Source: Escherichia phage phiEC1. Taken from it: a stretch of DNA of 64,000 nucleotides. The position numbers and the translations under genes are program-made. Positions within the stretch are counted from its first letter, which is position 1, and each line of letters starts with the position of its first letter. The notes beneath the pieces are model-generated. The model did not search any database. It had not been told where the DNA came from and saw only the letters and a list, made by a program, of their open reading frames with translations. This document shows, piece after piece, positions 28,259 to 54,700 of this stretch. Location of the stretch: sequence record KY608965.1. One strand, 5' to 3'.

Positions 28259-28287
28259 AACGTTTTCCTCATGTTGTTGATGGGATG

Positions 28288-34082: not shown

Positions 34083-34136
34083 ATTTTTCCACTTAGTAAA
34101 GAAATCATTATACTCTAATCCGTCCTTGGATGTAAA

Positions 34137-34751: not shown

Positions 34752-34786
34752 AATTTCCTCAGTGGGAGCCGAAGCTCCCAGTTAAA

Positions 34787-35152: not shown

Positions 35153-35182
35153 TTTATTCTCCAGATGTTTAAGTTGTTTGTT

Positions 35183-35222
35183 GGTACAGGTATATAATAA
35201 CATAACCTGTACCAAAGTAAAC
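35183..35222 (-). promoter_or_regulatory. Early promoter cassette: GTTTAC-N17-TATTAT with 9-bp inverted repeat GGTACAGGT/ACCTGTACC straddling the -10
   Basis: Minus-strand AAACAGTTTACTTTGGTACAGGTTATGTTATTATATACCTGTACC directly after the upstream stop codon. Confidence 0.6.
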
Positions 35223-35226
35223 TGTT

Positions 35227-35595
35227 TTATGCAACTTTAATCCAATTGTCTAAATTTAAAACACCTTTGGCTTTCATTTTTTCGATCAGGTTATCTGCTG
35301 TAATGCGTCCATTTTGATACCATGTAACATCTTCAGAGTAACCAGTTTCTTCGTCAACATATGTTTCTGAACGAATTTTACCTGTAATAATAGTTTTTAA
35401 TTCGTATGTGTCACCTGTGAAAAAGTTTGCTAACACAATTTTCCAAGAGAAATCATCAGAAGGACCTTCAGGGGTCATACAACCTACGAACTCAAATTGC
35501 TCTTTGTATAACATCCACTGGAATTCTTTAATTTCGATAGCTTTATAACCGTCGTGGTCTTTACATTTGATGTATGAGTTCAGATTGATTTTCAT
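35227..35595 (-). CDS. Hypothetical protein, 122 aa
   Basis: ORF downstream of an early promoter (GTTTAC-N17-TACTAT at about 35637-35665). Confidence 0.6.
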   Translation of the reverse strand: MKINLNSYIKCKDHDGYKAIEIKEFQWMLYKEQFEFVGCMTPEGPSDDFSWKIVLANFFTGDTYELKTIITGKIRSETYVDEETGYSEDVTWYQNGRITADNLIEKMKAKGVLNLDNWIKVA

Positions 35596-35699
35596 TTTAT
35601 TCTCCGGTTGTTTTATTGATTAGGTGGTACAAGTCTATAGTAACACATCCTACAGGAGAGTAAACATCTTTTTTAAACTTTTTCTGCCCTAAACGCACA

Positions 35700-35722
35700 A
35701 AAGGGAGACCGAAGTCTCCCTA
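35700..35722 (-). terminator. Rho-independent terminator (GGGAGACTTCGGTCTCCC + TTTTGTG) after the 59-aa ORF
   Basis: Same hairpin family as after genes 23, 35 and 32. Confidence 0.7.
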
Positions 35723-35725
35723 AAA

Positions 35726-35905
35726 TTATGCAACAACCTTTCCAAAACGAGAAGCATCATCTCGAAGAACTGCACGTGCTCTGCGCATGATCTTCTCAAC
35801 TGTTTGATTAATACGAGAGTTCGACCCACGCTTGTATCCAGCGCGTTTAGAGGTACCATCAACTTTCTTTTCAACTGCTTTCTTTGCTTTAGCTTGTTTT
35901 GCCAT
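35726..35905 (-). CDS. Small basic protein, 59 aa (not in ORF track; alternative frame to the track ORF 35689..35874)
   Basis: Hand-translated MAKQAKAKKAVEKKVDGTSKRAGYKRGSNSRINQTVEKIMRRARAVLRDDASRFGKVVA; ATG start with AAAGAGAA SD, terminator hairpin directly downstream. Confidence 0.5.
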   Translation of the reverse strand: MAKQAKAKKAVEKKVDGTSKRAGYKRGSNSRINQTVEKIMRRARAVLRDDASRFGKVVA

Positions 35906-36068
35906 TATAAATTCTCTTTAAATGAAAATGCAGGACTTATTGACATTGCCTGCGCAAGCCCTCAAGGGGAACATAGGTTTTGGGTATTTAACGACAGGAT
36001 AACCATAAACCCGTCATCATACCTACCATGACTTACACAGCTAACCTTTTGCTGACGCATGATAGCAA

Positions 36069-36317
36069 TTATTTCAAAGTAATAACAAAATGACGAACTG
36101 CTTTGCGTGCTGCAGAAGCCAGAGGCTTAGCATATTTCAATTCATCTTTAGCTTCCAGTTCAGAAGCCAAAGTAGCCTGAGCAGGATTCAGATGTTTGAA
36201 ATATCGCAGGATTTCCAGTGCTTCGGCTTCAACATCAATTGAAGCGCCGTAGTTTTCGTGACCGTTATTCCATGCGTTGCGTTGCAGTTCAAGAGCGTGT
36301 TGTAATTGTTTAATCAT
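36069..36317 (-). CDS. rIII: rIII lysis inhibition accessory protein
   Basis: 82 aa, near-identical to T4 rIII as recalled (MIKQLQHALELQRNAWNNGHENYGASIDVEAEALEILRYFKHLNPAQ…). Confidence 0.93.
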   Translation of the reverse strand: MIKQLQHALELQRNAWNNGHENYGASIDVEAEALEILRYFKHLNPAQATLASELEAKDELKYAKPLASAARKAVRHFVITLK

Positions 36318-36441
36318 TTTAAATTCTCAATTCGAGATAATATTTAGTAGCCACGTTCGTCTGAATTTCACCTTCTTTCGACAAGTCTCTCAGTTGTAGG
36401 CTACCGCTTAGAAGAGTGTTCTCTTCATATAGTTATTTATA

Positions 36442-36774
36442 TCACTTATAAAGACACGGAATAGCTTTATAGTGGCATGTTACGAATTTCTGTTTAATTT
36501 CTTTAGGTTGTTTAAGTCCCAAAGCCACAAATGGATGTGGAACATTTCGAATTTGTCCAACTGGTAGTGGAGTCAAATCACCAACTTCAACAAAACCTTC
36601 AGGAACATCAGGACCTACAGAATGAACTACACATAGTTCAGGAACTTCACCTTGAACACGTTTACCAATCACAAGTCCTGATTCGGTAACTTCTTCATCA
36701 CCTGCTTGAGCGGGTTCAGAAACCAGAATGACATATTCACCAACAGCACGAATTGGGAGTTGTACTTCAGACAT
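36442..36774 (-). CDS. 31: Co-chaperonin gp31 (GroES analogue for capsid folding)
   Basis: 110 aa, near-identical to T4 gp31 as recalled (…[54 protein letters not shown]…). Confidence 0.95.
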
Positions 36775-36804
36775 CTTATTTCCTTGTTGTTTGACGATAG
36801 ATTA

Positions 36805-36830
36805 ATAATACCATACTATTCGTAAAGCAT
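36805..36830 (-). promoter_or_regulatory. MotA-box middle promoter (TGCTTTA-N12-TATTAT) upstream of gene 31
   Basis: Minus-strand ATGCTTTACGAATAGTATGGTATTATTAAT. Confidence 0.55.
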
Positions 36831-36831
36831 A

Positions 36832-37140
36832 TTACATAAGAAGCAAACGTTCGACCGGAGTACCATCAACCGAAATTACTTTATCAAGGCGGAAAGAACG
36901 CCACTGACCTAACTTGGTATCGAATGCTCGAACTGATTCACGAGGTTCATAACGAACTTCTGTTGCTGGATTGTTATTGACATATTTGACTTCAAGTTCA
37001 TCGCGCGAAGCAAACATAGTGCGTACATCACCGTTAGCCTTTTCAAATACAACACAATGAACGCCTACAGACAGAATAGTTTTAATACGTTCACGAAGAA
37101 CCATAGTTTCTTGTTCAGTTAAAATCATATTATTCACCAC
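36832..37140 (-). CDS. Hypothetical protein (31.1-like)
   Basis: 102-aa ORF between cd and 31, overlapping cd stop. Confidence 0.6.
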   Translation of the reverse strand: MVNNMILTEQETMVLRERIKTILSVGVHCVVFEKANGDVRTMFASRDELEVKYVNNNPATEVRYEPRESVRAFDTKLGQWRSFRLDKVISVDGTPVERLLLM

Positions 37141-37711
37141 AAAAGTTTCGGATTTGTTCCCAATTCAGAGAACGAAGATTATTACGAGAGTACTGAATTA
37201 CTTCAATACCAGCTTGTTTTAGAATATCTGCCCAATTTTCAGGAGATCGGTCGTATAATTCTGCGTATACAACCTTTTTAATACCTGACTGCGTAATAGC
37301 TTTAGTGCAATCAGGACACGGAGAAAGCGTAGTATATAACGTAGCACCTTCAATAGAATTACCTTTACGAGCGGCAAACAAAATTGCATTCAATTCTGCA
37401 TGGATTTCATTATTAGCAGACCATGCACTATGAGCAGCTCGATGTTCTTTGGCTAAAACAAAATTATCTACCCGTCCAAATGCTGTAGTGCCTTCTTTAT
37501 GTCCAGCAACGATGACTGGGATTGGTTTATTCTTCAACCAACCATTTTCAGATGCATGTTCGCAACAGTTAACGCCACCTGCAGGTGAACCGTTATATCC
37601 AGTAGAGATAATGCGTCCATCTTTTTCAATGACGGCACCAACTTTCCATGAACAACATTTTGATTCTTGAGAAATCAGATATGCAATCTGAAGGTATGTG
37701 CTAGCTTTCAT
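37130..37711 (-). CDS. cd: dCMP deaminase
   Basis: 193 aa; zinc-binding HAE…PCPDC motifs; colinear with T4 Cd. Confidence 0.95.
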   Translation of the reverse strand: MKASTYLQIAYLISQESKCCSWKVGAVIEKDGRIISTGYNGSPAGGVNCCEHASENGWLKNKPIPVIVAGHKEGTTAFGRVDNFVLAKEHRAAHSAWSANNEIHAELNAILFAARKGNSIEGATLYTTLSPCPDCTKAITQSGIKKVVYAELYDRSPENWADILKQAGIEVIQYSRNNLRSLNWEQIRNFCGE

Positions 37712-38703
37712 TATTGAACCTTATTAATATAAGTTAACAGCTCTTTAGTTTGTTCCCAACTGATGCACGCATCGGTAACGGAAACGCCATAGGACATATT
37801 ATCAGAAATTTTTTGATTTCCTTCATGTAGGAACGATTCTATCATAATTCCTTTGACCAAATCATTAGCTGCTAAATTTTTACCAATACCAATTTGATTG
37901 CTATAATGCCCATCAGCGTTTGCATGGCTACAGTCAACCATTACATAATGATTCAGACCTACTGCCCTTGCTTTGTTAGAAGCTTCTTGAATATCAGAAG
38001 AATGATAGTTCGGGCCGTTGGTCCCGCCACGCAATACGATATGCGTATTCTGATTACCTTCAGCTTCAACAATGCCTACAGTACCATCGACGTCCATACC
38101 CATATACCGATGAGGCCAGGCGGCACTATACATCGCGTCTGTAGCTACTTTAATAGAACCATTGGTTGCGTTCTTGAAGCCTACGCACATCGGTAGACCT
38201 GAAGCAATTTCACGATGTGTCTGACTTTCAGTCGTACGGGCGCCAATAGCAACCCATGAGAAAATACCAGAAAGATACTTAATCGTGAATGGGTCTAATA
38301 CTTCAGTTGCTAATGGAAGTCCCATACGTAGAAGTTTACGACACAATGTTCGTGCAACTATAAGACCGTGGTTCATATCAAAACTTCCGTCAAGATATGG
38401 ATCATTTACAAGACCTTTCCAACCTACGGTAGTTCGAGGCTTTTCAAAATAAACGCGCATCACTAACAGAACATTAGGAAGACGAGTTTGAAGTTCAGCC
38501 AGACGTTTGCCGTATTCAACAGCAGCAATAGGGTCATGAATTGAACAAGGACCTACAACAATAAGTTTGCGTGGGTCTTCACCGTTCATAATCGAATTAA
38601 CTTGTTCGCGATGAGAAGCCACTTGTGATGCGTAAGCTTCCGACAAAGGAATAATCTCAGCCAGTTCTTTTGGAGAAATAAGTTTTCCGACGACAGGTAA
38701 CAT
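37711..38703 (-). CDS. 3-deoxy-D-arabino-heptulosonate-7-phosphate (DAHP) synthase, class I (AroG/F/H-like)
   Basis: 330 aa; LIVVGPCSIHDP, VMRVYFEKPRTTVGWKGL, IGARTTESQTHRE, GFKN, IVLRGG, SHAN, GVSVTDACISWE match E. coli AroG-type DAHP synthase blocks as recalled. Confidence 0.85.
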   Translation of the reverse strand: MLPVVGKLISPKELAEIIPLSEAYASQVASHREQVNSIMNGEDPRKLIVVGPCSIHDPIAAVEYGKRLAELQTRLPNVLLVMRVYFEKPRTTVGWKGLVNDPYLDGSFDMNHGLIVARTLCRKLLRMGLPLATEVLDPFTIKYLSGIFSWVAIGARTTESQTHREIASGLPMCVGFKNATNGSIKVATDAMYSAAWPHRYMGMDVDGTVGIVEAEGNQNTHIVLRGGTNGPNYHSSDIQEASNKARAVGLNHYVMVDCSHANADGHYSNQIGIGKNLAANDLVKGIMIESFLHEGNQKISDNMSYGVSVTDACISWEQTKELLTYINKVQ

Positions 38704-38823
38704 AACAATCCTTAGGAGATATAAACAGATTCTGATTCAACAATACCTTTAACCGGATTAGACAGGCTAAGTTGGTAGTGCTCAGATTTATGACCATTCT
38801 CGATAGTAATGAGATAGCTCTCA

Positions 38824-39060
38824 TTATAGTGTTCCATATACTCGAGTTGCTTCAACAAGACCATCACTGCCTAATTTAAGGCTAGTAATCTGGTCACCAT
38901 CTTTAGGATTAACGATTATGAGAAAAGAACGTGGAGATTCTTGAATAACTCGTAATGTTGCATCCTGGAAACGTTCAGACACTTTATTGATGAGTGCTTG
39001 AGCAAATTCTTTTACTTTAATCTGAAATTCGTGTACTGTAATTGGGGTTTCACTTAGCAT
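38824..39060 (-). CDS. Hypothetical early protein (cd.x-like)
   Basis: 78-aa ORF with SD GAGGAAA and upstream early promoter (GTTTAC…TACTAT at about 39090-39119). Confidence 0.55.
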   Translation of the reverse strand: MLSETPITVHEFQIKVKEFAQALINKVSERFQDATLRVIQESPRSFLIIVNPKDGDQITSLKLGSDGLVEATRVYGTL

Positions 39061-39121
39061 TTCGATTTCCTCATTGTGTTGGTAGAGTTATAGTATCACA
39101 ACTCCACCATGTTGTAAACCA

Positions 39122-39397
39122 TTAAATTGCTTTGCATTCAATTTTTTGTGTACCGAAATTGATATCACATTGGATAACTAAATCGCCGTCAAGATCAAAT
39201 ACCACTATGACGTGTGCAGACCCAGGGAGAAGAGTAATAGCAATAGAATCTACTTGGTCTGGGAGTAAAGCATTGAGTACATGAGTTAGTTGAGCATGAA
39301 CTCTGAGTTCGGCTGCATTATCAAGCACTTCAAACATATTATTAGCAATAATCTGACTGAAGACTACCTTTACAATTTCAGAATAAGTTGGGAACAT
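39122..39397 (-). CDS. Hypothetical early protein (cd.x-like)
   Basis: 91-aa ORF in same-strand array. Confidence 0.5.
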   Translation of the reverse strand: MFPTYSEIVKVVFSQIIANNMFEVLDNAAELRVHAQLTHVLNALLPDQVDSIAITLLPGSAHVIVVFDLDGDLVIQCDINFGTQKIECKAI

Positions 39398-39404
39398 AAT
39401 TACC

Positions 39405-39629
39405 TCAGTGCACAGTATTTACTTTAACTCGAACAACAAATCGCTCGGTTGGTTCACCTACAGGAACAAACTCTACATGATATTCGCCTTTGTATCGAGT
39501 ATTCAGGTCATTACGAATTCCTGCGAGTTTGTTGATTAATGTAGGACTCATATTAAGTCCCACTAGTTTACGAAGCATTTTGTATGCTTCATCTTCGATT
39601 TCATGATGTTTATCGTACATAGTTTTCAT
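39405..39629 (-). CDS. Hypothetical early protein (cd.x-like)
   Basis: 74-aa ORF in same-strand array. Confidence 0.5.
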   Translation of the reverse strand: MKTMYDKHHEIEDEAYKMLRKLVGLNMSPTLINKLAGIRNDLNTRYKGEYHVEFVPVGEPTERFVVRVKVNTVH

Positions 39630-39800
39630 TTAACCATTCAATTGCCTGGTCGACGTTATCAAATATGCCACCGTCCAAACGTTCTTCATGCTCATAGTTC
39701 AGCACATCAATACCGAACTGTCCATTTACTAAAGGCCAGGCAACAAACAAATATTCTTTATGCCGTTCAATGGCCTCAATCACTTCATATAATCGTTTCA

Positions 39801-39801
<1 letters not shown>
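39610..39801 (-). CDS. Hypothetical early protein (cd.x-like)
   Basis: 63-aa ORF directly downstream of pseT. Confidence 0.5.
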
Positions 39802-40887
<1,086 letters not shown>

Positions 40888-40888
<1 letters not shown>

Positions 40889-41187
40889 TATTTTATTCCT
40901 AAGAAAATTTCAAGAATACGAATGTTATGCTCGCGCCGGTCTTTATTAATTTCAGCAACGTTTTTATTAATTGACGTACTTCTAACGTTTGAAGAAATAA
41001 ATTTAATCATATGACTTTTGAGTTGTTGCAAATCCAACCCTTTTTCTTTAGCAGCTTTACGAAGAGCTTTACCTGCTTCATCTAGTGCCTTTGCTGCATC
41101 TTTGTCATAATTGCCAAGTGACATTCCACGGCAGATATCAATATACTCATCAGACCGTTTGATGTAATTCTCTAGTAATGTTTTCAT
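40888..41187 (-). CDS. Hypothetical protein
   Basis: 99-aa ORF downstream of an early promoter cassette. Confidence 0.55.
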
Positions 41188-41209
41188 TTAGATTTCCTCA
41201 ATTATCCAT

Positions 41210-41245
41210 AGGAGCATTATACTCTGCTCCTGAGAGTTTGTAAAC
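41210..41245 (-). promoter_or_regulatory. Early promoter cassette GTTTAC-N18-TATAAT with 7-bp inverted repeat AGGAGCA/TGCTCCT straddling the -10
   Basis: Minus-strand GTTTACAAACTCTCAGGAGCAGAGTATAATGCTCCT. Confidence 0.6.
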
Positions 41246-41469
41246 TATTTTACTAAAGATTCAATATACTCGTGAAGAGCTTTAGTCGCTACTGCCCACT
41301 TATTCTGATATTCATTTTTCAGATTAGCACGAGACTGAACTAACAAGCGGTCATTAGTCGGAGGCAAAGATTCTAATCGTTGAATCTGGCGCCCATAAAT
41401 CATAGCCGCCATTTCAGATTCATAGATAAGCCCTTTAATGTATTCATGCTGTTCTTTAGTCATTGGCAT
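41245..41469 (-). CDS. Hypothetical protein (pseT.1-like)
   Basis: 74-aa ORF downstream of the spanin pair. Confidence 0.55.
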   Translation of the reverse strand: MPMTKEQHEYIKGLIYESEMAAMIYGRQIQRLESLPPTNDRLLVQSRANLKNEYQNKWAVATKALHEYIESLVK

Positions 41470-41750
41470 TTTTCCTCTTTTAAACCACTACGATAATAAC
41501 ATATCATAGTTTTCTGGTCATGTACATATCTTTTTACATCGTTTAACCAGATACGAAATTCTTGAGAGTCTTCAAATGGCATTCCAACCCATGGATTACC
41601 ATCAATAACCTTTACTTGCCATTTCTGGTTATATTCAACAATAGATTCAGGCCATGGCGGATGTAAAGTTTCTTTAGGGCTTAAGGGCACATCCTGGGCA
41701 CATCCAGCCAAAATGCCAATAGATAATACAACTGCGGTTAATTTAATCAT
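41460..41750 (-). CDS. o-spanin-like outer-membrane lipoprotein (pseT.2 position)
   Basis: Signal peptide with lipobox LAGC (MIKLTAVVLSIGILAGCAQ…), several Cys; follows i-spanin-like gene. Confidence 0.7.
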   Translation of the reverse strand: MIKLTAVVLSIGILAGCAQDVPLSPKETLHPPWPESIVEYNQKWQVKVIDGNPWVGMPFEDSQEFRIWLNDVKRYVHDQKTMICYYRSGLKEEKCQ

Positions 41751-42103
41751 TCTGAGAGCTTCCTGAGGTCTTCTGCAAAGGAATCGAAGGACCTGTTGAT
41801 TTGTTTTTCGACCAATCCTGGCTTACTTGCCACCACGTTCTTCTTCTTCGAATCCTGACGGAGCTTTTCATTTTCAGCCTTAAGTTGGTCAACTAAAACA
41901 CGGTTCTTATAAGTCATTTCTTCGATTGACTGATATTGAACTTTGAAGTCGTCTAATACTTTAGCATTGTTTTTAGCAGCCTCTTTAACAGAAGCTAATT
42001 CAGTATTCAACGAATCAACTTTGTTGTTTAAGACAACTATTGTTACAGTAGAAACTAGAGCAAAAGCTGCTACTATAACATAAATCGGATTTACTTTAAG
42101 CAT
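41747..42103 (-). CDS. i-spanin-like inner-membrane protein (pseT.3 position)
   Basis: N-terminal TM helix (PIYVIVAAFALVSTVTIVVL) followed by coiled-coil periplasmic domain; 4-nt overlap with the lipoprotein gene. Confidence 0.7.
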   Translation of the reverse strand: MLKVNPIYVIVAAFALVSTVTIVVLNNKVDSLNTELASVKEAAKNNAKVLDDFKVQYQSIEEMTYKNRVLVDQLKAENEKLRQDSKKKNVVASKPGLVEKQINRSFDSFAEDLRKLSE

Positions 42104-42591
42104 GTTTGAATAATCTCAATGATTTCGTCTCGGGATAATCCATTGATAAGAACTGTTTTAGGCCCATCAGTTTGGATTTTGTAGGTCTCAAACATTACAC
42201 ACAACTCTTCTGCTGTATGATATGGACTTGAGATTCCGAGGCGGTTGAATTTGTCGGTAAGAGGGTCGCAAATGATGTAGAATTTTATACCTGCGATATG
42301 TACATTTGGTTGACTAATATTAATGAACACATTAGCGTCATATTTAGTTAAATTGTTTTGAAGAAATTCTACCATAGCATTAACTGCTTCCGGCATTGCT
42401 TCACGTTTCTCTTCAGCGTATCGGGTGGAATATTCCTTTTGCTTTAACTTCTTTTTAGCATTTTTCGCTAGAGTAGTACGAAGGTCTGTAAGATAACCAA
42501 CTGCACGGCCTTTCTTAAAGACCCGGATTCCATCTGTAGAATCACCAAATGCTGCCACAACCATATCGTTAGTAATCAATTGCATATTCAT
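42091..42591 (-). CDS. Hypothetical early protein at the position of T4 alc (identity not verified)
   Basis: Start set at MNMQLITND… (SD GAGGAG upstream, early promoter cassette 42621-42650); track ORF extends 14 codons. Confidence 0.5.
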   Translation of the reverse strand: MNMQLITNDMVVAAFGDSTDGIRVFKKGRAVGYLTDLRTTLAKNAKKKLKQKEYSTRYAEEKREAMPEAVNAMVEFLQNNLTKYDANVFINISQPNVHIAGIKFYIICDPLTDKFNRLGISSPYHTAEELCVMFETYKIQTDGPKTVLINGLSRDEIIEIIQTCLK

Positions 42592-42620
42592 AATTTTCTC
42601 CTCGTGTTGTTGATAAACCC

Positions 42621-42650
42621 ATAGTATCACCATCCTTGGTGTTTGTAAAC
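42621..42650 (-). promoter_or_regulatory. Early promoter GTTTAC-N18-TACTAT with inverted repeat CACCA/TGGTG in the spacer
   Basis: Minus-strand GTTTACAAACACCAAGGATGGTGATACTAT. Confidence 0.65.
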
Positions 42651-42652
42651 CG

Positions 42653-43786
<1,134 letters not shown>

Positions 43787-43803
43787 TCAGTTAGTTTTTT
43801 TAA

Positions 43804-43833
43804 ATTGTACCACAATCCTTGTGGTATGTAAAC
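43804..43833 (-). promoter_or_regulatory. Early promoter GTTTAC-N18-TACAAT with inverted repeat CCACAA/TTGTGG in the spacer, upstream of rnlA
   Basis: Minus-strand GTTTACATACCACAAGGATTGTGGTACAAT. Confidence 0.65.
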
Positions 43834-44243
43834 TACTTTTTCTTATGTTGGATATTCCAAGGCGGGTTGAACTTTTTGATAAAAAGTGGTTCTTCAAGGT
43901 CCATTGTTGCGATGGTCATTGAACCAAGTTCGTTAGTGACTGAAAGGTCAAAACATTGGCGGGCCCAGAATTCAACCTTTTTGCCTTGCATTAAGGCATC
44001 CAAAATCATAAGTGATTTTCTTGAATCTGAAGTCTGGTCTTTTCGATTTATGGCTGTTCGATAATAGTTAATGCGTTTCTTTAAATTCTTGGTTTTACCA
44101 ATATACACAAGTTCGTCATCTATAGCAATAGCATATATGACGTTTTTCTTATTAGGGACATCAACGGTTTTAATTGTTGCATCTTCTAATAGCTCCAATT
44201 CTATATATTTAATAAAGGAATATTCGGCGGCAATATCTTTCAT
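43833..44243 (-). CDS. denA: Endonuclease II (GIY-YIG family, host DNA degradation)
   Basis: 136 aa, near-identical to T4 EndoII as recalled (…YSFIKY.ELEL…NKKNVIYAIAIDDELVYIGKTKNL.KRINYYRTAINRKD…). Confidence 0.93.
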   Translation of the reverse strand: MKDIAAEYSFIKYIELELLEDATIKTVDVPNKKNVIYAIAIDDELVYIGKTKNLKKRINYYRTAINRKDQTSDSRKSLMILDALMQGKKVEFWARQCFDLSVTNELGSMTIATMDLEEPLFIKKFNPPWNIQHKKK

Positions 44244-44269
44244 AATAAAGTGGGACCGAAGTCCCGTCC

Positions 44270-45448
44270 TTAGAAATATTTTTTGTATGAATTGATTACA
44301 TTTTGGTCTACATCATTATCAATTTGTGCGACAAGATAAGAACTGATTTCAACTTCCTGAGGAGCTGCTTGAACTAAATCAGAGTTCAGATATTCACGAA
44401 TCCAAGGATACGGATGCTTGGTCGGAGCATCAGTGATTGGGCATGGCAAACCGCACTGTTTCATACGAGACACAGTCAAGTAATCAACAAAAGCACACAT
44501 ACTCTGCGTATTGATACCTGGACATGTACCATCTTTAAAGAGGTGTGCAGCCCATTCCTTCTCTTGACTATTTACTTCCATAAAGATATCTACTGCTTCT
44601 TGCTCACACTCTTTAGCAATTTGAACCCATTCATCCCCATCAACACCAAGTTGGAGCTGTCGAATAATGTACTGAGTGCCTTTAAGGTGGAGTTGTTCGT
44701 CACGAGCGATGAACTTCATAATCTTTGCATTACCTTCCATAATTTCCATGTTCTTATGGAAGTTGAAAGTACATGCAAAAGATACATAAAAACGAATAGC
44801 TTCTAAGGCGTTAATAACGTGTAAGCAGAGATAAAGAGACTTCATTAATGCACGTTTACATTCTTCCACATGCATAAGACTATTTGAATATGCATCCAAA
44901 TCATATTCATTTTCGGAAAAACATTTAAAAATTTCTTTAGCATTTTCCCATTCACGTGTTTTAACTAGAACATCATCATAATATTTGCCGATTGATTCCG
45001 CACGTTTCATAATTGCTTCATCTAATACAATCTCATCAAATACCTTCGATGGATCAGTATAAAGATTTCGCATGATATGAGTATATGAACGAGAGTGAAT
45101 GGTTTCACTGAATGTCCATGTAGCAACCCATGTATCTAATGAAGGGTCGGAAAGCAATGCCATAAGTACCGCAGATGGTGCCCTGCCTTGGATAGAATCC
45201 AATAATGATTGATACTTAAGGTTGTTCGTAAAGATGTTCTGTTGGAACTGTGGAAGCTTATTGAACTGCGCAGAGTCCAACATCAAGTTTACCTCTTCAG
45301 GGCGCCAAAAAAACGACAATTGCTTTTCAATAAGCTCTTCAAAAACTTTATGGCGTTGAATATCGTAACGCGCAAGGCCAAGACCAGAACCAAAGAACAT
45401 TGGTTCATTCAAAACATCAACTTTTTGGGTATTAAAAACTGTACTCAT
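44270..45448 (-). CDS. nrdB: Ribonucleotide reductase small subunit (uninterrupted)
   Basis: 392-aa contiguous ORF with di-iron/tyrosyl-radical R2 features; no intron-sized interruption. Confidence 0.95.
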   Translation of the reverse strand: MSTVFNTQKVDVLNEPMFFGSGLGLARYDIQRHKVFEELIEKQLSFFWRPEEVNLMLDSAQFNKLPQFQQNIFTNNLKYQSLLDSIQGRAPSAVLMALLSDPSLDTWVATWTFSETIHSRSYTHIMRNLYTDPSKVFDEIVLDEAIMKRAESIGKYYDDVLVKTREWENAKEIFKCFSENEYDLDAYSNSLMHVEECKRALMKSLYLCLHVINALEAIRFYVSFACTFNFHKNMEIMEGNAKIMKFIARDEQLHLKGTQYIIRQLQLGVDGDEWVQIAKECEQEAVDIFMEVNSQEKEWAAHLFKDGTCPGINTQSMCAFVDYLTVSRMKQCGLPCPITDAPTKHPYPWIREYLNSDLVQAAPQEVEISSYLVAQIDNDVDQNVINSYKKYF

Positions 45449-45464
45449 TATATTCTCTCAATAG

Positions 45465-45482
45465 TGACTCATCCATGAGTCA
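45465..45482. promoter_or_regulatory. Palindrome TGACTCAT-cc-ATGAGTCA about 17 nt upstream of the nrdB start
   Basis: 8-bp perfect inverted arms with 2-nt centre in the nrdA-nrdB intergenic spacer. Confidence 0.4.
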
Positions 45483-45498
45483 ATTATAAACAAAATTC

Positions 45499-47754
45499 TT
45501 AAAGCTTACAAGCGGAGCAATCTTCAGCTTTAGGCGTTTCTAACTCATAGTCATCTGTACCAGAACCATCTCGAGTGTTATGATAGTAAAGGTTCTTACC
45601 ACCAAAGTACCAGAAGTAAAGCAAGTCATCAAGCATTACAGACATTGGCACTTTGCCTTTCTCAAAGACTGAAGGGTCGTAGTATGTATTAGCAGAAGCA
45701 GATTGGCACACCCATTTTAACATGATAACAACTTGTGTCAGATAAGGCTTATTACCTTTCTTAGCGAGTTTCCACGCATAGTCATAAAGACCCATGTTGT
45801 GTTCAATATTAGGAACTACTTGACGGAAATTACCTTCTTTAGATTCTTTAATACTTACTGGGCCACGAGGTGGTTCAATACCATTTGTGCTATTTGAGAC
45901 CTGGCTGCTTGATTCGCATGGCATGAGAGCACTGAGTGTACTGTTACGAATCCCGTGTTCTTTAAGTTCGGCTCGTAGTTCTTCCCAATCACATACATAG
46001 TTTGGGGCTGCGATTTGGTCAATCTTTTTATTGTACCAGTCGATAGGTAATTCGCCTCGAGACCATTTAGTGTCTGAATAATACTCGCAACGTCCTTTTT
46101 CTTTGGCAAGTTTGATTGACGCTTTGATAAGGCCATATTGTAATCTCTCAAACAATTCATGAGTCAAATCGTTAGCATCTTCGTATGAAGCAAAGTTAGA
46201 AGCCAACCAGGCTGCATAGTTAGTAACACCAACACCTAGGTTTCGACGCTTTTTAGCTTTTAAAGCTTCTGGAACCGGATAGTCTTGATAGTCTAACAAG
46301 TTATCAAGTGCACGTACTTGCACTTCAGCAAGTTCATTAATTTTATCTTGGTCTTGCCAATCAAATTTATCAAGAACAAAAGCAGAAAGAGTGCAAAGTC
46401 CAATTTCAGCATCAGGACTATTAACATCATTAGTTGGAATAGCTATTTCACAACATAGATTGCTCTGACGAATAGGAGCTTTTTCACGAATAAACGGGGT
46501 GTAGTTATTCGTGTTATCAACAAACTGTGGATAAATTCGAGCAGTGCCAGAACGTTCAGTCATGAACAATTCAAAGAGTTCTAGTGCTTTGATTCTTTTC
46601 TTTCTGATTGTTGGGTCTTTTTCAGCTTTCTCATAAAGCTCACGGAATTTATCTTGATCTTCAAAGAACGAGTAGTATAGTTCGCCTGACATTTCGTGAG
46701 GGCTAAATAAAGTAATATAATCATTTTTACCAAGGCGTTCCATCATAAGGTCATTAATCTGAATTCCGTAGTCCATATGTCTAATACGGTTTTCATCCAC
46801 GCCTTTGTTATTTTTCAGAACCAACAGGTTCTCTACTTCTAAGTGCCACATCGGATAATACGCTGTAGCAGCACCACCACGAATACCACCTTGAGAACAA
46901 GATTTTACTGCAGTTTGGAAATGTTTCCAGAATGGAATAACACCAGTATGTCGAACTTCACCCATACCAATCTTAGAACCTTCTGCACGAAGCATACCAA
47001 CGTTGATACCGATACCAGCTCGTTTAGAAATATATTCAATAATTGATGCTGAAGTTTTGTTAATAGATTTTAACGAATCACCGGCTTCAATAACTACACA
47101 ACTAGAGAACTGGCGGGTTGGAGTACGAGCACCTGCCATAATTGGGGTTGGCAATGAAACTTGATGAGTAGAAACGGCATCATAAAAACGAATAATATGT
47201 TTCAAACGGTCATGAGTTTCGTCTTGATGTAAGGCCATGCCAATAGCCATGATAGCAAACTGTGGAGTTTCATAAATCTTCCCAGTTGTTTTATCTTTAA
47301 CTAGATATTTTTCTTTAAGCTGCATAGCACCAGCATAAGTCAGGTCAAAGTCTCGTTCATGTTTAATCTGTGAATCGAGATAAATGATTTCTTCTGCTGA
47401 ATATTGAGACAACAGCTCAGGGTCATATTTGCCTTCATTAACACAATAAGAAATATGGTCGATAAAAGCAGGTGGTTCAAACTGCCCATACACATCTTTA
47501 CGAAGTGCAAACATTAATCCTTTAGCGGCAACATATTGATAGTCAGGTTCTTCGACAGAAATCAAGTTAGCTGCAACTTTAATACAAATCTTCTGGATAT
47601 CTTTGGTGCTCATCCCATCAACCAGATGAGTCTTAATTTCTTCATACAATTCGTATGGGTCGATTTGTGTTCCTTCACACTGCCAAGTTAAGACTTGAAT
47701 AATTTTCTGTGCATCAAAATTTTGGGATACACCACTGCTCTTAGTTACTTGCAT
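45499..47754 (-). CDS. nrdA: Ribonucleotide reductase large subunit
   Basis: 751 aa class Ia R1, colinear with T4 NrdA. Confidence 0.96.
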   Translation of the reverse strand: MQVTKSSGVSQNFDAQKIIQVLTWQCEGTQIDPYELYEEIKTHLVDGMSTKDIQKICIKVAANLISVEEPDYQYVAAKGLMFALRKDVYGQFEPPAFIDHISYCVNEGKYDPELLSQYSAEEIIYLDSQIKHERDFDLTYAGAMQLKEKYLVKDKTTGKIYETPQFAIMAIGMALHQDETHDRLKHIIRFYDAVSTHQVSLPTPIMAGARTPTRQFSSCVVIEAGDSLKSINKTSASIIEYISKRAGIGINVGMLRAEGSKIGMGEVRHTGVIPFWKHFQTAVKSCSQGGIRGGAATAYYPMWHLEVENLLVLKNNKGVDENRIRHMDYGIQINDLMMERLGKNDYITLFSPHEMSGELYYSFFEDQDKFRELYEKAEKDPTIRKKRIKALELFELFMTERSGTARIYPQFVDNTNNYTPFIREKAPIRQSNLCCEIAIPTNDVNSPDAEIGLCTLSAFVLDKFDWQDQDKINELAEVQVRALDNLLDYQDYPVPEALKAKKRRNLGVGVTNYAAWLASNFASYEDANDLTHELFERLQYGLIKASIKLAKEKGRCEYYSDTKWSRGELPIDWYNKKIDQIAAPNYVCDWEELRAELKEHGIRNSTLSALMPCESSSQVSNSTNGIEPPRGPVSIKESKEGNFRQVVPNIEHNMGLYDYAWKLAKKGNKPYLTQVVIMLKWVCQSASANTYYDPSVFEKGKVPMSVMLDDLLYFWYFGGKNLYYHNTRDGSGTDDYELETPKAEDCSACKL

Positions 47755-47841
47755 ATATTCCTCAGTATAGGTTGATAGACATTACTCCAAACGGGATAGT
47801 ATTTATCCCGTTAATTTATTATACACTTTTAAACTGAAGCG

Positions 47842-48096
47842 TTAATTATCCTCAGCAATAATTTCTTCATATTCTTTAGGAGTCAAGACTGTAATATCGA
47901 AATAAACCAGAGGCTCTTTTTCCATACCGAATCCACCACAGAATTCACGATATTCATAAATTCGTTCATGTGAATGGCAAATGAATCGTTCACCTTTAAC
48001 TGTGATTTCACTATTCGGTGAAGGGATATCCAGTTCACTTGGATTTTTCATTTCAAAAATTGTGGTGCCATATGAATTAATAAAACGTAAAATCAT
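47842..48096 (-). CDS. Hypothetical protein (nrdA.1-like)
   Basis: Start trimmed to MILRFINSYG…, 1 nt after the td stop (TAAAATG). Confidence 0.55.
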   Translation of the reverse strand: MILRFINSYGTTIFEMKNPSELDIPSPNSEITVKGERFICHSHERIYEYREFCGGFGMEKEPLVYFDITVLTPKEYEEIIAEDN

Positions 48097-48097
48097 T

Positions 48098-48958
48098 TTA
48101 TACCGCCATTTTAGCTTTGATAGCTGGATGTGATTCGTAATTTTTAAGAATGAAATCACTCGGATTCATATGCTCTGTTACCCAATGAAGCTGTAATGTC
48201 GTGCTCCAATCAGAGAATCCTTCAGGCCAATCAATTTTAAGTTCACACAGTTCTTTAGGCTCACGACGAAGAACTTCTTTGCATTGTTCTACATGATTGC
48301 TGTAGATATGCGTGTTGCCGCCTGAGAACACTAAATCACCTGGGATAAGATTACACATCTTCGCTACGATATGAGTCAAGGCAGCGTATGAGGCAATATT
48401 AAACGGTAGTCCTAAGAATACATCTACTGAACGTTGATACCATTGCAGGTCAAGATGACCATTACGTACGTTGAACTGATAAAACATATGACATGGAGGA
48501 AGAGCCATTTGGTCGATTTCAGCCGGGTTCCATGCAGAAACAATTTGACGTCTGTCATTAGGAAGAGCTTTAATACGATCGATAGTTTTAACCAATTGGT
48601 CCACACCACCGAAATCACGCCATTGTTTACCATATATAGGACCAAGTTCACCACTATGATAACCAAGGTCTTTTGCCTGATTTTCGTAATTATCGTCCCA
48701 AATAGTTTTACCTTCAATAAGGCTACCATGAGTACGAAGACGTAAATCATTAACGTTGGTAGAACCAGATATAAACCAAAGTAATTCAGCGATACAAGCT
48801 TTCCATGCCAGTTTCTTAGTTGTTACTGCAGGAAATCCTTTAGTCAGGTCCCAACGCAATTTAGTCCCGAAAAGAGCAATAGTGCCTGTACCTGTACGGT
48901 CGTCTGTTTCATAGCCATTTTCTAGGATATCATTAATCAGGTATTGGTATTGTTTCAT
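48098..48958 (-). CDS. td: Thymidylate synthase (uninterrupted)
   Basis: 286 aa contiguous; active-site region …ALPPCHMFYQFNV…; overlaps frd stop. Confidence 0.96.
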   Translation of the reverse strand: MKQYQYLINDILENGYETDDRTGTGTIALFGTKLRWDLTKGFPAVTTKKLAWKACIAELLWFISGSTNVNDLRLRTHGSLIEGKTIWDDNYENQAKDLGYHSGELGPIYGKQWRDFGGVDQLVKTIDRIKALPNDRRQIVSAWNPAEIDQMALPPCHMFYQFNVRNGHLDLQWYQRSVDVFLGLPFNIASYAALTHIVAKMCNLIPGDLVFSGGNTHIYSNHVEQCKEVLRREPKELCELKIDWPEGFSDWSTTLQLHWVTEHMNPSDFILKNYESHPAIKAKMAV

Positions 48959-49542
48959 TTATACACACTCTCAGTAATTTCGGTGAGTTCATCGATTCTG
49001 TAGTAATGAGATTCTACCATAGAACGTTGAAGCATAATATCTTGGACGAAATCTTTATCAAGTTGAACATCGGAATTAACACGACATTTCTTAATGATTT
49101 TAGTCATCACGATTTCATCGGCATAAGGCAGTGCTTGTTTTAATAAAGCAGGACCGCCAATAACCGAGACATCAACATGTTCAGTAGAAAGTTTAAACGG
49201 TACGTCAGTTGCAGGGCTAAACAGGTTAATTTCGCCACCGGTTACCAAGGTAATAAATTCAGATTGGGTGATATAGAACCGTGCAAGTTCGTCGCTTTTA
49301 GTCCTAGGCAGTTTTCTAGACATATCGGTGACAACTACATGAGTACGATCTGGGAGTAGACGAGGTAATGATGCAAAAGTCTTAGCACCCATAACCATTA
49401 CAGTGTTTTTAGTGCGAGCAACAAAGTTACTCATATCTTGTTTGATATGCTTCCATGGAAGTCCATCACCTAATCCAAAAGCATATTCCAGTTTATCATC
49501 AACTGTTTTAGATGGTGCGCATGCGAATACTAATTTAAGCAT
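48955..49542 (-). CDS. frd: Dihydrofolate reductase
   Basis: 195 aa, colinear with T4 Frd. Confidence 0.93.
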   Translation of the reverse strand: MLKLVFACAPSKTVDDKLEYAFGLGDGLPWKHIKQDMSNFVARTKNTVMVMGAKTFASLPRLLPDRTHVVVTDMSRKLPRTKSDELARFYITQSEFITLVTGGEINLFSPATDVPFKLSTEHVDVSVIGGPALLKQALPYADEIVMTKIIKKCRVNSDVQLDKDFVQDIMLQRSMVESHYYRIDELTEITESVYK

Positions 49543-49544
49543 TT

Positions 49545-49793
49545 TTATTTCCTCAGATTTTTCTTAACAACTTTCCAATCAGCTTTAAACGATTCAACAT
49601 CAGAGTGGCAAATCCAGAATCCTGCGCTTTCGCCGTCTTCATAAAGTGGACATCCATCACATTCTTCATTCCAGCCCATTTCACGTAAAGCTGCTTCAGC
49701 TTGTTCAAGGAGTTCAGCATCTTTATCAAGGATGTTGAAGTACCATTTGCCTTTAACTTCAGAATCGTTAATGCTTTGGCGTTGTAATTTCAT
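49545..49793 (-). CDS. Hypothetical protein (frd.1-like), Cys-containing
   Basis: 82-aa ORF immediately upstream of frd, with early promoter cassette upstream. Confidence 0.6.
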   Translation of the reverse strand: MKLQRQSINDSEVKGKWYFNILDKDAELLEQAEAALREMGWNEECDGCPLYEDGESAGFWICHSDVESFKADWKVVKKNLRK

Positions 49794-49822
49794 TTTATTC
49801 TCCGTTGCTTCATTTGTTTTGA

Positions 49823-49859
49823 CAGGGTAATAGTATCACACCATTACCCTGTTGTATAC
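49823..49859 (-). promoter_or_regulatory. Early promoter cassette (GTATAC-N18-TACTAT) with 9-bp inverted repeat CAGGGTAAT/ATTACCCTG straddling the -10
   Basis: Minus-strand GTATACAACAGGGTAATGGTGTGATACTATTACCCTG. Confidence 0.55.
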
Positions 49860-50221
49860 TATTTTATTCCAAAAATTTCTTTAATTTCTGCAATCACATC
49901 TCGAGCATTTTCCGTAGTCACTTCAAAGATGAGTGATTGTTTAGAAATAGACTCTGGAGATACCTCGATGAAGTGTTTAAACTCATCATCATAAAGCTCA
50001 AAATATGAACCTGGCTTACCATCAAAACCGAATTCAGTACCGTCTCGCATAGTTACACGGGTTACACATTTATCATCATCATAATCTGTGTTCATGTCTT
50101 TTACAACAAAACTAGGACCATGAAGCTCAATCAAAGCCAGCATATCGGCGTTTTGTGGGCATTCATTGGCGAAGATAGCTTTACATTCTGGATTGATGAT
50201 ATAAGTTTTTCCAATTTTCAT
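49859..50221 (-). CDS. Hypothetical protein, paralogue A of a tandem pair (frd.2/frd.3 position)
   Basis: 120 aa; shares M.IGK.YIINP.(F/C)K..FANEC……ML.LIE.HGPSFVV…RVTM.DGTE… with the neighbouring ORF. Confidence 0.65.
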   Translation of the reverse strand: MKIGKTYIINPECKAIFANECPQNADMLALIELHGPSFVVKDMNTDYDDDKCVTRVTMRDGTEFGFDGKPGSYFELYDDEFKHFIEVSPESISKQSLIFEVTTENARDVIAEIKEIFGIK

Positions 50222-50244
50222 TTTGATTTCCTCTCATTTGTTTT

Positions 50245-50283
50245 GATAGGATTACTATAACATAGTCCTATCTTTTTGTATAC
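50245..50283 (-). promoter_or_regulatory. Early promoter cassette (GTATAC-N18-TATAGT) with 7-bp inverted repeat GATAGGA/TCCTATC around the -10
   Basis: Minus-strand GTATACAAAAAGATAGGACTATGTTATAGTAATCCTATC. Confidence 0.55.
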
Positions 50284-50669
50284 TACTTTTTAAAAGTTTT
50301 TTGCAAAAGTTTGATGATTTCGTCGACGTTGGTTTCATCTACGATACAATGGATTTTTGTTACACCTAAAGTTATACCTTCGTTAGTAGATTGAGGCTTT
50401 TCTAAAGTTACCTCAGTAAAGTATTTGAATTCTTCAGAGTAAATCTCAAAATACGTCTCAAGTGGGCCACCAGCCATGTATTCAGTGCCGTCTTCCATAG
50501 TTACACGTACCACACAGTCACCAGCACAATCATCACTTTCCATTTCATCTACAACAAAACTAGGTCCGTGCTTCTCTATTAAATTTAGCATCATTACATT
50601 GCAACGGCACTCGTTAGCAAAGTCATCTTTAAATAAAGGGTTAATGATATAAGATTTTCCGATTTCCAT
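50283..50669 (-). CDS. Hypothetical protein, paralogue B of a tandem pair
   Basis: 128 aa; see paralogue A. Confidence 0.65.
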   Translation of the reverse strand: MEIGKSYIINPLFKDDFANECRCNVMMLNLIEKHGPSFVVDEMESDDCAGDCVVRVTMEDGTEYMAGGPLETYFEIYSEEFKYFTEVTLEKPQSTNEGITLGVTKIHCIVDETNVDEIIKLLQKTFKK

Positions 50670-50698
50670 TTTGATTTCCTCATGTTGTTGATAGGTCT

Positions 50699-50727
50699 AT
50701 ACTAACACATTCAGGGAAGAAGTAAAC
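50699..50727 (-). promoter_or_regulatory. Early promoter GTTTAC-N17-TAGTAT upstream of paralogue B
   Basis: Minus-strand GTTTACTTCTTCCCTGAATGTGTTAGTAT, downstream of the gene 32 terminator. Confidence 0.55.
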
Positions 50728-50750
50728 AACTTTTTCAGCAATTTACAGAT

Positions 50751-50776
50751 ACTCAAAAGGGAGACCGAAGTCTCCC
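50751..50776 (-). terminator. Rho-independent terminator after gene 32 (GGGAGACTTCGGTCTCCC + TTTTGAG)
   Basis: Same hairpin as after genes 23 and 35, here in minus orientation. Confidence 0.75.
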
Positions 50777-50782
50777 GATTTA

Positions 50783-51685
50783 TTATAGACCAGCTAACAG
50801 GTCATCGAGGTCGCCATCATCAGAGGATGAGGTAGAGCTCATGAAGTCATCTTCAGTTTTTGCAGAACTAAAGGCTTCCATGTCTTTATCAAAATCGTCA
50901 AGGTCAGAAGCAACTTTATCTGCAACAGAAGCTGCTGCGGCTGCTGCACCACCAAGAGCGGCAGTACCAAGAACCTTAGCGAAAGATTCATTTAATTTTT
51001 CAAAGGACTTGAACTGGTCTTTAGCCGTCAAAGTAGTAAGGTCTACCATCTGGTCATATAGTTCTTTCTGGAATGCTTCGTCATTAATACGAGGAATTTC
51101 AGATTGACCCAAGAATTTAGATTCGTCGTAGTTGCTAAAACCAGAAACCTGCTTAGCTTTCAGAACGAAGTTGGCACCTTCAAACGGACAAGTAACATCA
51201 ACCGGAGTTTCACCCATTTCGGTATCAACTGCAATCATTGCATTGATTTTGTCCCAAATCTTTTTACCGAAACGATATTTAAATACTTTACCTTCGTTAT
51301 CTGGAGCTTGAGGGTCTTTAACAACCAGAATATTAGCCCAATAAGAAGTTTTACGTTTCAGTTGAGAATATTCAGTTTTGTTGGTATTGTACAGGTCATT
51401 TTTACTAATGTACTGACATACAGGACAAGAGTCGTAATCACCATGTGTAGAAGAGCAATTTTCAATATACCATTTACCATTTTTCTTGAAACCGTGGTTA
51501 ACAAGAATTGCAAATGGTAGTGCGTCATCAGTTTTTGCTGGCAGGAAACGAATTACCGCTTGACCATTACCTGATGCATCTAGCTTCAGCTTCCATTCGC
51601 CTTTATCTTCTGAAGAGAAACCTTTGTTACCGTTCAGTTTAGCCATTTGAGCAGCGAGGTCAGCAGTAGATTTACGTTTAAACAT
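50783..51685 (-). CDS. 32: Single-stranded DNA-binding protein gp32
   Basis: 300 aa, near-identical to T4 gp32 as recalled ([35 protein letters not shown]…); acidic C-terminus. Confidence 0.97.
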
Positions 51686-54638: not shown

Positions 54639-54668
54639 ATGAACCTCTTGTTCAGTTAGTCAACTTGT

Positions 54669-54700
54669 CTATAGTAACACACTCATTTGAAAGCGTAAAC
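54669..54700 (-). promoter_or_regulatory. Early promoter GTTTAC-N18-TACTAT upstream of rnh
   Basis: Minus-strand GTTTACGCTTTCAAATGAGTGTGTTACTAT in the rnh/gene 34 divergent spacer. Confidence 0.6.

Follow-up and report, generated by a model that had tools for sequence, protein, structure and literature searches.

What are the promoter-like motifs with inverted repeats that recur at gene boundaries in the minus strand of Escherichia phage phiEC1, and what could they do there? We have studied this question in a stretch of 64,000 nucleotides (nt) from sequence record KY608965.1, which we will call the window. A preliminary description had noticed such sites in and around positions 35,183–50,727 (the flagged region) and compared them with the promoter-early stem-loop (PeSL) modules of T4-type phages. 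We estimate a probability of about 80% that the repeated motifs are PeSL-type regulatory cassettes between the early genes of a T-even phage similar to RB69. The window belongs to the RB69-like T-even genus Mosigvirus: its best match is Escherichia phage LF82-41 with 99% identity, and an 8-kb piece of the flagged region is 97–99% identical to many Escherichia and Shigella phages of this genus. By comparison with the annotated relative ATK47, the classical early and middle genes of T4 are found in the minus strand from about 28 to 55 kb (alt, 30, rIII, 31, cd, pseT, alc, rnlA, denA, nrdB, nrdA, td, frd, 32, 59 and rnh), with numerous small open reading frames (ORFs) interspersed among them.

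The promoter part of the cassettes is clearly defined. The motif GTTTAC-N17/18-TAYWAT has ten exact matches in the window, all of them in the minus strand, while only 0.17 are expected from dinucleotide-preserving shuffles; none of 100 shuffles reaches ten. When one or two mismatches are allowed, four more sites appear (50727; 49859 and 50283, both with GTATAC; 34137, which has a 19-nt spacer), 14 in total; we name each site by the highest coordinate of its -35 box. All of them are co-oriented with the genes and 12 of the 14 precede early genes between alt and rnh. A generic search for TTGACA/TATAAT was uninformative, with 68 matches in the window for 58 expected: only the T4-type consensus is enriched. 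The 20 nt upstream of the sites have 79% A+T and 48% A, to be compared with 62% and 31% in the background. The sites also have in common a TGn before the -10 and a C/A-rich leader which ends in GAGG or GGAG: at every intergenic site this Shine-Dalgarno (SD) sequence and an ATG are found 25–45 nt after the -10. The T4-type early consensus consists of GTTTAC at -35, a TGn extended -10, TAnnAT at -10 and an A-rich UP element (PMC1524935, PMC2988021), and the window sites have all these features. In RB69, 57 early promoters of this consensus were predicted in 2006, with a preference for C at -3 to -1 (PMC1524935). One of our cassettes, 39119, aligns with the cd.3/cd.2 intergenic region of T4, which is the early promoter Pe133295 according to the T4 record. 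In a literature search we found no usable genome-wide map of 5' or 3' ends for T4 or RB69-like phages.

A peculiarity of these promoters is their position. Nine of the 12 early-region sites have the stop codon of the preceding gene overlapping the -35 or at most 5 nt away from it; the two are joined as TAGTTTAC or TAGTATAC at 28317, 34137, 41245, 43833, 49859 and 50283. Where the stop abuts the -35, the cassette is the entire intergenic space of 55–65 nt. The order of its elements is then a stop codon in an A-rich, UP-like tract, the GTTTAC -35, a spacer of 17–18 nt ending in TGn, the TAYWAT -10, the C/A-rich leader, and the SD with its ATG. The promoter motif and its placement at upstream stop codons, both claimed in the preliminary description, are thus real, as are all nine promoter-like sites for which it gave positions.

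The inverted repeats are less uniform. We folded the span from -35 to +16 of each site and compared it with 200 dinucleotide shuffles per site. Strong hairpins are found at five sites (35222, 39119, 41245, 49859 and 50283), with energies from -10.4 to -19.1 kcal/mol and z values from -2.6 to -4.7 (Table 1); at these sites only 0–3 of the 200 shuffles fold as well as the native sequence. The hairpin at 35222, for example, has 11 bp and -18.2 kcal/mol. All five have the same geometry: the spacer contains the 5' arm and the loop contains the -10, while the 3' arm follows immediately and covers the predicted start site. In all five cassettes the -35 abuts the upstream stop codon. We also compared the pairing of each spacer with the segment after its own -10 and with those of other sites. 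The mean is -7.6 kcal/mol for cognate pairs and -4.6 kcal/mol for non-cognate ones (permutation p = 5e-5), and the cognate pairing of the five strong sites ranks first or second of 26. Since cognate arms beat the arms of other sites, the complementarity is not a by-product of the promoter consensus.

Three other sites (43833, 42650 and 28317) have palindromes of 5–8 bp within the spacer; as a class they are marginal (p = 0.036; best z -1.7). At 35665, 50727, 34137, 54700, 12982 and 15825 the fold is no better than that of shuffles. We find therefore a strong stem-loop at five sites, a marginal one at three, a stand-alone hairpin upstream of the promoter at two (35665 and 50727) and none at 34137, 54700 and 12982. 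The preliminary description had spoken of at least ten sites with the same architecture, including an inverted repeat in the spacer or straddling the -10: there are indeed ten or more promoters, but only five to eight of them have hairpins, five strong and three marginal ones in the spacer. A scan of the whole window with Rfam at gathering thresholds gave no match. A degenerate cassette (GTTTAT ... CACTAT) is found in the nrdA/nrdB intergenic region, at positions 45449–45501 of the minus strand; it has an 8-bp palindrome, TGACTCAT GG ATGAGTCA, which is placed in the spacer and centred on GG, of the same type as those of 43833 and 28317.

The five strong hairpins are not restricted to the window. 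In annotated phage genomes they recur at the orthologous gene junctions of T4, PE37, WG01 (Dhakavirus), VR20 (Gaprivervirus) and five Mosigviruses. We relied on such genomes because a search for related loci led with the cd.2 protein to two loci only and with the 30.7 protein to close relatives only. The 30.8/30.7 hairpin (TTGGTACAGG...CCTGTACC) is nearly invariant in 14 IMG/VR loci and in all the genomes examined, T4, PE37, WG01 and VR20 among them, while the upstream coding sequence and the leader around it diverge freely; the only variants in its stem are of the G.U type. The cd.3/cd.2 helix has changed more. In WG01 three of its pairs differ on both sides (A-U to G-C, G-C to A-U and U-A to C-G), and several others switch from Watson-Crick to G.U; 96% of the cells are paired, against 26–52% when the partner is slid, and its covariation is reached by five of 500 shuffles. 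In the pseT.1/orf99 helix one stem pair forms a complete series A-U, G.U, G-C across Mosigvirus, WG01 and VR20, and one pair of the frd.2/frd.1 helix (Mosigvirus type) likewise runs through all three states. The frd.2a/frd.2b cassette has homologues in ATK47, F2, RPN187, PTK and AV114, with A-T, G.T or G-C at stem pair 7. At the frd.1 junction T4 and PE37 have the arms AGGGTAGTA/TACTATTACCCT; those of WG01 and VR20 are different, yet complementary. Overall, five stem pairs have changed on both sides in the orthologous hairpins and about eight switch between Watson-Crick and G.U. The structure of the embedded hairpins is kept by compensatory evolution across at least four genera. A lack of conservation at orthologous positions would have refuted the preliminary description; in fact the inverted repeats are kept there in five T-even genera or lineages. 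As to the palindromes within the spacer, T4 retains the CCACA...TGTGG of denA/rnlA and has GCTTC, similar to a MotA box, in place of the -35; at rnlA/alc the register has moved to ACACC/GGTGT in other Mosigviruses.

The strand of the fold is also informative. In 29 of 38 unique strong cassettes the sense strand folds more stably than the antisense strand, and G.U pairs amount to 55 of 448 in sense folds and 21 of 416 in antisense folds. Both features point to a structure formed by the RNA of the coding strand and not to a cruciform in the DNA.

Embedded and stand-alone hairpins have a complementary distribution. The two early-region promoters without an embedded hairpin at 35665 and 50727 each have, about 40 nt upstream, GGGAGACTTCGGTCTCCC followed by TTTT, a C(UUCG)G terminator. 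A comparison of the syntenic region covered ten T-even genomes, namely the window, T4, PE37, WG01, VR20 and five Mosigviruses. When the -35 is at most 12 nt from the stop, an embedded hairpin (-10 kcal/mol or better) is found in 21 of 37 unique cassettes; when there is a long gap upstream, it is found in two of 15 cassettes, and all 15 have a separate upstream hairpin (Fisher p = 0.005 for the difference between abutting and long-gap cassettes, orthologues not being independent). It follows that nearly every early gene boundary has a hairpin just after the stop, folded into the promoter where no room is left. In the window, stand-alone hairpins are the only ones called on the coding strand by a terminator scan (50759–50776 and 44252–44265). 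Altogether five C(UUCG)G hairpins stand directly after stop codons in the minus strand: after 32 (50759–50776), 30.9 (35703–35720), nrdB (44252–44265), 30.7 (34764–34779) and alt.1 (30446–30459). Three of them are followed by a T-run and resemble classical T4-type terminators; the one after 30.7 runs into the next SD and has no T-run.

A role can be proposed from this arrangement. The host sigma-70 RNA polymerase would start the transcript of the next gene about 7 nt after the -10, within the 3' arm. RNA from the cassette's own promoter could therefore not fold in this way. The hairpin would be limited to read-through RNA that arrives from upstream, where it would stand directly behind the stop codon of the preceding gene. 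In each of the five strong hairpins the 3' arm ends 20–30 nt before the SD, which is left unpaired. The hairpin would be a 3'-end element of the upstream transcription unit: a pause site or attenuator, and a barrier to 3' exonucleases once RegB or RNase E has cut the leader. It would have been compressed into the promoter because no intergenic room was left. We consider this the most likely role, at roughly even odds. Protection of the 3' end fits with the SD GGAGAATAAAA, because in three cassettes, that of 30.8/30.7 among them, it matches the strong RegB cleavage consensus GGAGRAYARAA (PMC3014915). In essence it is also the role that has been proposed for PeSL stem-loops, as terminators or attenuators, and one of these lowered the expression of a downstream lacZ (PMC2839356). 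The preliminary description had spoken of a terminator or processing site. A terminator in the canonical sense is unlikely, and we would rather speak of an element that attenuates, processes or stabilises at its 3' end the upstream transcript.

Could the embedded hairpins nevertheless be ordinary Rho-independent terminators which merely overlap promoters? They stand directly after stop codons, and one PeSL stem-loop of RB49 cut lacZ expression about as much as rrnB T1 (PMC2839356). We find this reading improbable: on the coding strand none of the five is followed by a T-run and the scan calls none of them, while the true terminators of the region are C(UUCG)G stems followed by TTTT. As canonical intrinsic terminators they are thus rejected. 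Termination of antisense transcription is not a general explanation either, as a plus-strand T-run is present only at 50283: there the hairpin (50245–50272) is followed on the plus strand by TTTTTG and is called terminator-like, so that it could stop antisense transcription. An element acting on DNA, either a cruciform or a modulator of promoter melting, which could sense supercoiling or take part in the shut-off of early promoters, would be suggested by arms that bracket the -10 and by the statement that the shut-off mechanism is unknown (PMC2988021, PMC3014915). It is very unlikely. The loops have 10–14 nt and the arms 6–11 bp. Such dimensions are unfavourable for cruciform extrusion. Besides, the stems vary through G.T intermediates, which pair in RNA and not in DNA, and the folds are strand-asymmetric. 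The arm sequences differ at every site, which makes a common sequence-specific binding protein unlikely; a common palindromic binding site is rejected for the same reason. We give hardly any weight to the idea that the palindromes have no function of their own, arising by chance or following from the promoter consensus, with its ACAC downstream of the -35 and its GTGT upstream of the -10. Eight of the 14 sites do fold no better than shuffles, and the marginal class in the spacer rests on the conserved GT-rich extended -10. Chance is excluded, however, for the five hairpins straddling the -10 by the shuffles, by the cognate-arm test, which also rules out an artefact of the consensus, and by the compensatory changes in orthologues. 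For 35665, 50727, 34137, 54700 and 12982 this idea is the default reading.

Another possibility concerns the downstream gene. A hairpin that forms only in read-through RNA could alter the translation or decay of the next cistron, a switch depending on transcript origin as in T4 genes e, soc and 49; a gene would in that case owe most of its expression to the promoter directly in front of it. In those T4 genes the promoter lies in the DNA of the 5' strand of an RNA hairpin, and upstream and internal transcripts differ in structure (PMC3014915), so that gene e is a precedent for a promoter inside a hairpin. Their promoters are late ones and their hairpins occlude the SD, whereas those of the window have early promoters and do not reach the SD. 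In other T-even phages it is reached. The spacer arm pairs with the SD region in T4 alc (CCTCGTGTTGTGT / ACATAACATGAGG, -17.5 kcal/mol), in PE37 alt.-3 (13 perfect pairs, -19.8 kcal/mol) and in WG01 alc (CTCCTCAT / ATGAGGAG); such pairing is found in the alc cassettes of T4, PE37 and WG01, in alt.-3 of PE37 and in 30.8 of T4 and PE37, with the 5' arm upstream of the start site in every case. Read-through RNA would then mask the SD and promoter-proximal RNA would not. The complementarity of the spacer with leader and SD at alc and alt.-3 (at most 13 bp; -17 to -20 kcal/mol) is located at about 12276–12343 in T4, 257–320 and 15566–15633 in PE37 and 14246–14307 in WG01. As the five strong hairpins of the window leave the SD unpaired and weak spacer-SD pairing of 5–6 bp is found only at 35665 and 50727, a switch of this kind is unlikely here; the complementary distribution with stand-alone terminators also fits a 3'-end role better. 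We put forward only tentatively a wider idea, that the hairpins embedded in promoters are a conserved T-even discriminator of transcript origin, which marks read-through RNA for a different fate. This fate could be a protected 3' end of the upstream cistron or a masked leader and SD downstream, the latter in alc, alt.-3 and 30.8 of T4, PE37 and WG01.

The cassettes may have a second role in genome variation: they would supply homologies of 12–18 nt through which accessory ORFs can be lost, duplicated or exchanged. The supposition in the preliminary description that the ORFs flanked by cassettes are those which vary between relatives agrees with a comparison of the window with five Mosigviruses: 30.8, orf204 and frd.2b are the variable ones. 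Gene 30.8 is missing in AV114, whose sequence corresponds to the 30.8 cassette as far as GGAGAATAAAATG and then passes into the 30.7 ORF; this places the junction in the 15-nt GGAGAATAAAATGAA common to both flanking cassettes. In AV114, RPN187 and PTK, orf204 and its downstream cassette are replaced by a 30.6-like gene; the orf204/orf65 cassette bounds this replaceable module. In the interval from 32 to frd the arrangement of the frd.2a, frd.2b and frd.1 modules differs in every genome, with cassettes at the joints. The window has two frd.2 paralogues in tandem (49859–50669), with 128 and 120 amino acids (aa) and 58% identity, each behind its own cassette; its relatives have a single copy, or both in the opposite order. 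Among phage-database records orf204 is found in 113, 30.8 in 116 (at least 95% identity) and frd.2b in 21, for about 150–165 Mosigvirus records, while the conserved 30.7 is found in 708 records across genera.

How do these cassettes compare with known systems? PeSLs were defined as cassettes located beside variable ORFs, in which a stop codon within A/T-rich sequence is combined with an early promoter of sigma-70 type, with a stem-loop and with an SD and its ATG; the stem-loop has five positions, mostly between -35 and -10 or overlapping the -10, and G-T pairs were noted (PMC2839356). As far as sequence can tell, the cassettes of the window have these features, the stem-loop at only about half of the sites, so that the proposed resemblance is supported. 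They share with the PeSLs of RB49/phi1 (Arbiol et al. 2010, PMC2839356) the layout, the repetition between small early ORFs and the gain or loss of ORFs between neighbouring cassettes. They differ by a -35 of T4 type (GTTTAC instead of TTGACA), by stems of mixed sequence instead of polyG/polyC, and by the presence of a hairpin in only about half of the promoters. The PeSLs of PST/T4 and nt-1/KVP40 (Comeau et al. 2014, PMC4122927) are similar in that they accompany variable ORFs in hyperplastic regions, and the PST/T4 consensus TTTACW-N17-TAYWAT is the same as ours. The stem-loops of PST/T4 were placed just upstream of the promoter, whereas those of the window and of the T4 orthologues at 30.7, cd.2 and frd.1 straddle the -10; in the window only 50727 and 35665 have stand-alone hairpins upstream. 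The T4 and predicted RB69 early promoters (Nolan et al. 2006, PMC1524935) have the same GTTTAC, A-rich UP element, GT-rich or TGn extended -10 and TAnnAT, and the preference for C at -3 to -1 in RB69 corresponds to the 3' arms in the window. In that paper they are regarded purely as promoters, and the terms hairpin, stem-loop, palindrome and inverted repeat do not occur. In a full-text literature search we did not find any paper on PeSLs in RB69-like phages.

Several facts weigh against the interpretation as PeSL cassettes. Half of the promoters have no significant hairpin, so that it is not an obligatory part of the cassette. We infer both the use of the promoters and the function of the hairpins. 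No U-tract follows the embedded hairpins, nor does the scan call any of them on the coding strand, which makes efficient intrinsic termination doubtful. The identical stretches between cassettes, 12–18 nt, are far shorter than the conservation of about 100 bp reported for RB49/phi1: any recombination would be driven by microhomology and not by homology of that length. About half of the structural differences among Mosigviruses in the region are insertions of homing endonucleases or introns unrelated to the cassettes. Such differences are found at nrdB, nrdA, td and a seg-like gene, to which a variable rIII-30.9 spacer must be added; AV114 and F2 have intron or homing-endonuclease insertions in nrdB, nrdA and td which the window lacks. 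The G/T richness of the sense strand in the extended -10 could inflate the asymmetry of G.U pairs. Finally the orthologues are phylogenetically related, and a single lineage, WG01, contributes all three double changes of the cd.2 helix, so that the counts do not represent independent events.

The coordinates of all features are collected in Table 1, which includes the sites outside the early gene junctions.

Table 1. Cassettes, hairpins and terminators of the window (sites are named in the text by the highest coordinate of the -35)
Feature	Position	Strand	Elements	Remarks
30.8/30.7 cassette	35153–35226	-	-35 GTTTAC 35217–35222; -10 TATTAT 35194–35199	ATG at 35152
30.8/30.7 hairpin	35181–35215	-	TTGGTACAGGT / ACCTGTACCAA	straddles -10; z -4.7
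cd.3/cd.2 cassette	39061–39121	-	-35 39114–39119; -10 TACTAT 39090–39095	
cd.3/cd.2 hairpin	39080–39109	-	GGTGGAGTT / AACTCTACC	z -4.0
pseT.1/orf99 cassette	41188–41247	-	-35 41240–41245; -10 TATAAT 41216–41221	stop overlaps -35 (TAGTTTAC)
pseT.1/orf99 hairpin	41210–41231	-	AGGAGC / GCTCCT	-10 in loop; z -2.6
frd.2b/frd.1 cassette	49794–49861	-	TAGTATAC; -35 49854–49859; -10 TACTAT 49830–49835	SD GGAGAATAAAA
frd.2b/frd.1 hairpin	49822–49852	-	ACAGGGTAAT / ATTACCCTGT	z -4.7
frd.2a/frd.2b cassette	50222–50285	-	TAGTATAC; -35 50278–50283; -10 TATAGT 50254–50259	
frd.2a/frd.2b hairpin	50245–50272	-	GATAGGA / TCCTATC	z -3.4
denA/rnlA cassette	43778–43835	-	-35 43828–43833; -10 TACAAT 43804–43809	
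denA/rnlA 8-bp hairpin in spacer	43808–43826	-	TACCACAA GGA TTGTGGTA	z -1.7; 12 of 200 shuffles fold as well
rnlA/alc cassette	42592–42652	-	-35 42645–42650; -10 42621–42626	
rnlA/alc 5-bp palindrome in spacer	42628–42641	-	CACCA AGGA TGGTG	alone no better than shuffles
alt/alt.-3 cassette	28259–28319	-	TAGTTTAC; -35 28312–28317; -10 28288–28293	
alt/alt.-3 weak palindrome in spacer	within 28259–28319	-	ACACA TGGA TGTGT	fold z +0.6; hairpin not significant
30.9/30.8 module, separate parts	35596–35728	-	-35 35660–35665; -10 35637–35642	SD GGAGAATAAAA; no embedded hairpin (z +0.4)
30.9/30.8 C(UUCG)G terminator	35703–35720	-	GGGAGACTTCGGTCTCCC+TTTT	
32/frd.2a module	50670–50785	-	-35 50722–50727; -10 TAGTAT 50699–50704	no embedded hairpin (z +0.9)
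32/frd.2a terminator	50759–50776	-	GGGAGACTTCGGTCTCCC TTTTG	
orf204/orf65 cassette	34083–34139	-	TAGTTTAC; -35 34132–34137; -10 TATAAT 34107–34112	19-nt spacer; no significant hairpin
rnh promoter, divergent 34/rnh intergenic region	54639–54700	-	-35 54695–54700; -10 54671–54676	no hairpin
Exact early-promoter match outside flagged region	12953–12982	-		intergenic; SD and ATG downstream; no hairpin
Exact early-promoter match within coding region	15796–15825	-		no SD/ATG downstream; internal promoter or chance match

Other features of the region are apparent. The rIII-30.9 intergenic region (36065–36069) is a hot spot of insertion not related to cassettes: relatives have 100–250 extra nt there, and ATK47 has an annotated 'ori type 2 repeat' near it. 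Candidate middle promoters of the MotA-box type are found in the minus strand upstream of gene 31 (36775–36834, ATGCTTTA-N12-TATTAT) and of nrdA (47755–47844, CGCTTCA...GTATAAT, followed by a 9-bp hairpin AACGGGATA/TATCCCGTT). A phage-encoded DAHP synthase (aroF/aroG-like, 330 aa) is found at 37711–38703 between cd and cd.2, in the place of T4 cd.1. Genes 59 and 33 are separated by a gene for a Seg-like homing endonuclease of 227 aa (52448–53131), which AV114 and PTK have and RPN187 and F2 lack. The record of phage F2 (NC_054913) is labelled Tequatrovirus; its locus is about 95–97% identical to the Mosigvirus window and the label is probably wrong.

The finding is real, but it is largely ordinary and not a new kind of system. 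With it the PeSL concept, until now applied to RB49/phi1, PST/T4 and nt-1/KVP40, also covers the RB69-like Mosigviruses. When compared with the published descriptions considered above, two aspects are new: the hairpins are orthologous across T-even genera, their pairing being kept through compensatory and G.U changes, and embedded hairpins substitute for stand-alone terminators where the promoter abuts the stop. In practice the cassettes give a precise map of the boundaries of early transcription units and of the accessory modules 30.8, orf204 and frd.2b in a group of phages used for therapy. If the hairpins do discriminate transcripts by their origin, the paradigm of the late promoters of e and soc would be extended to early promoters, and such a discrimination could contribute to the distinction between immediate-early and delayed-early expression.

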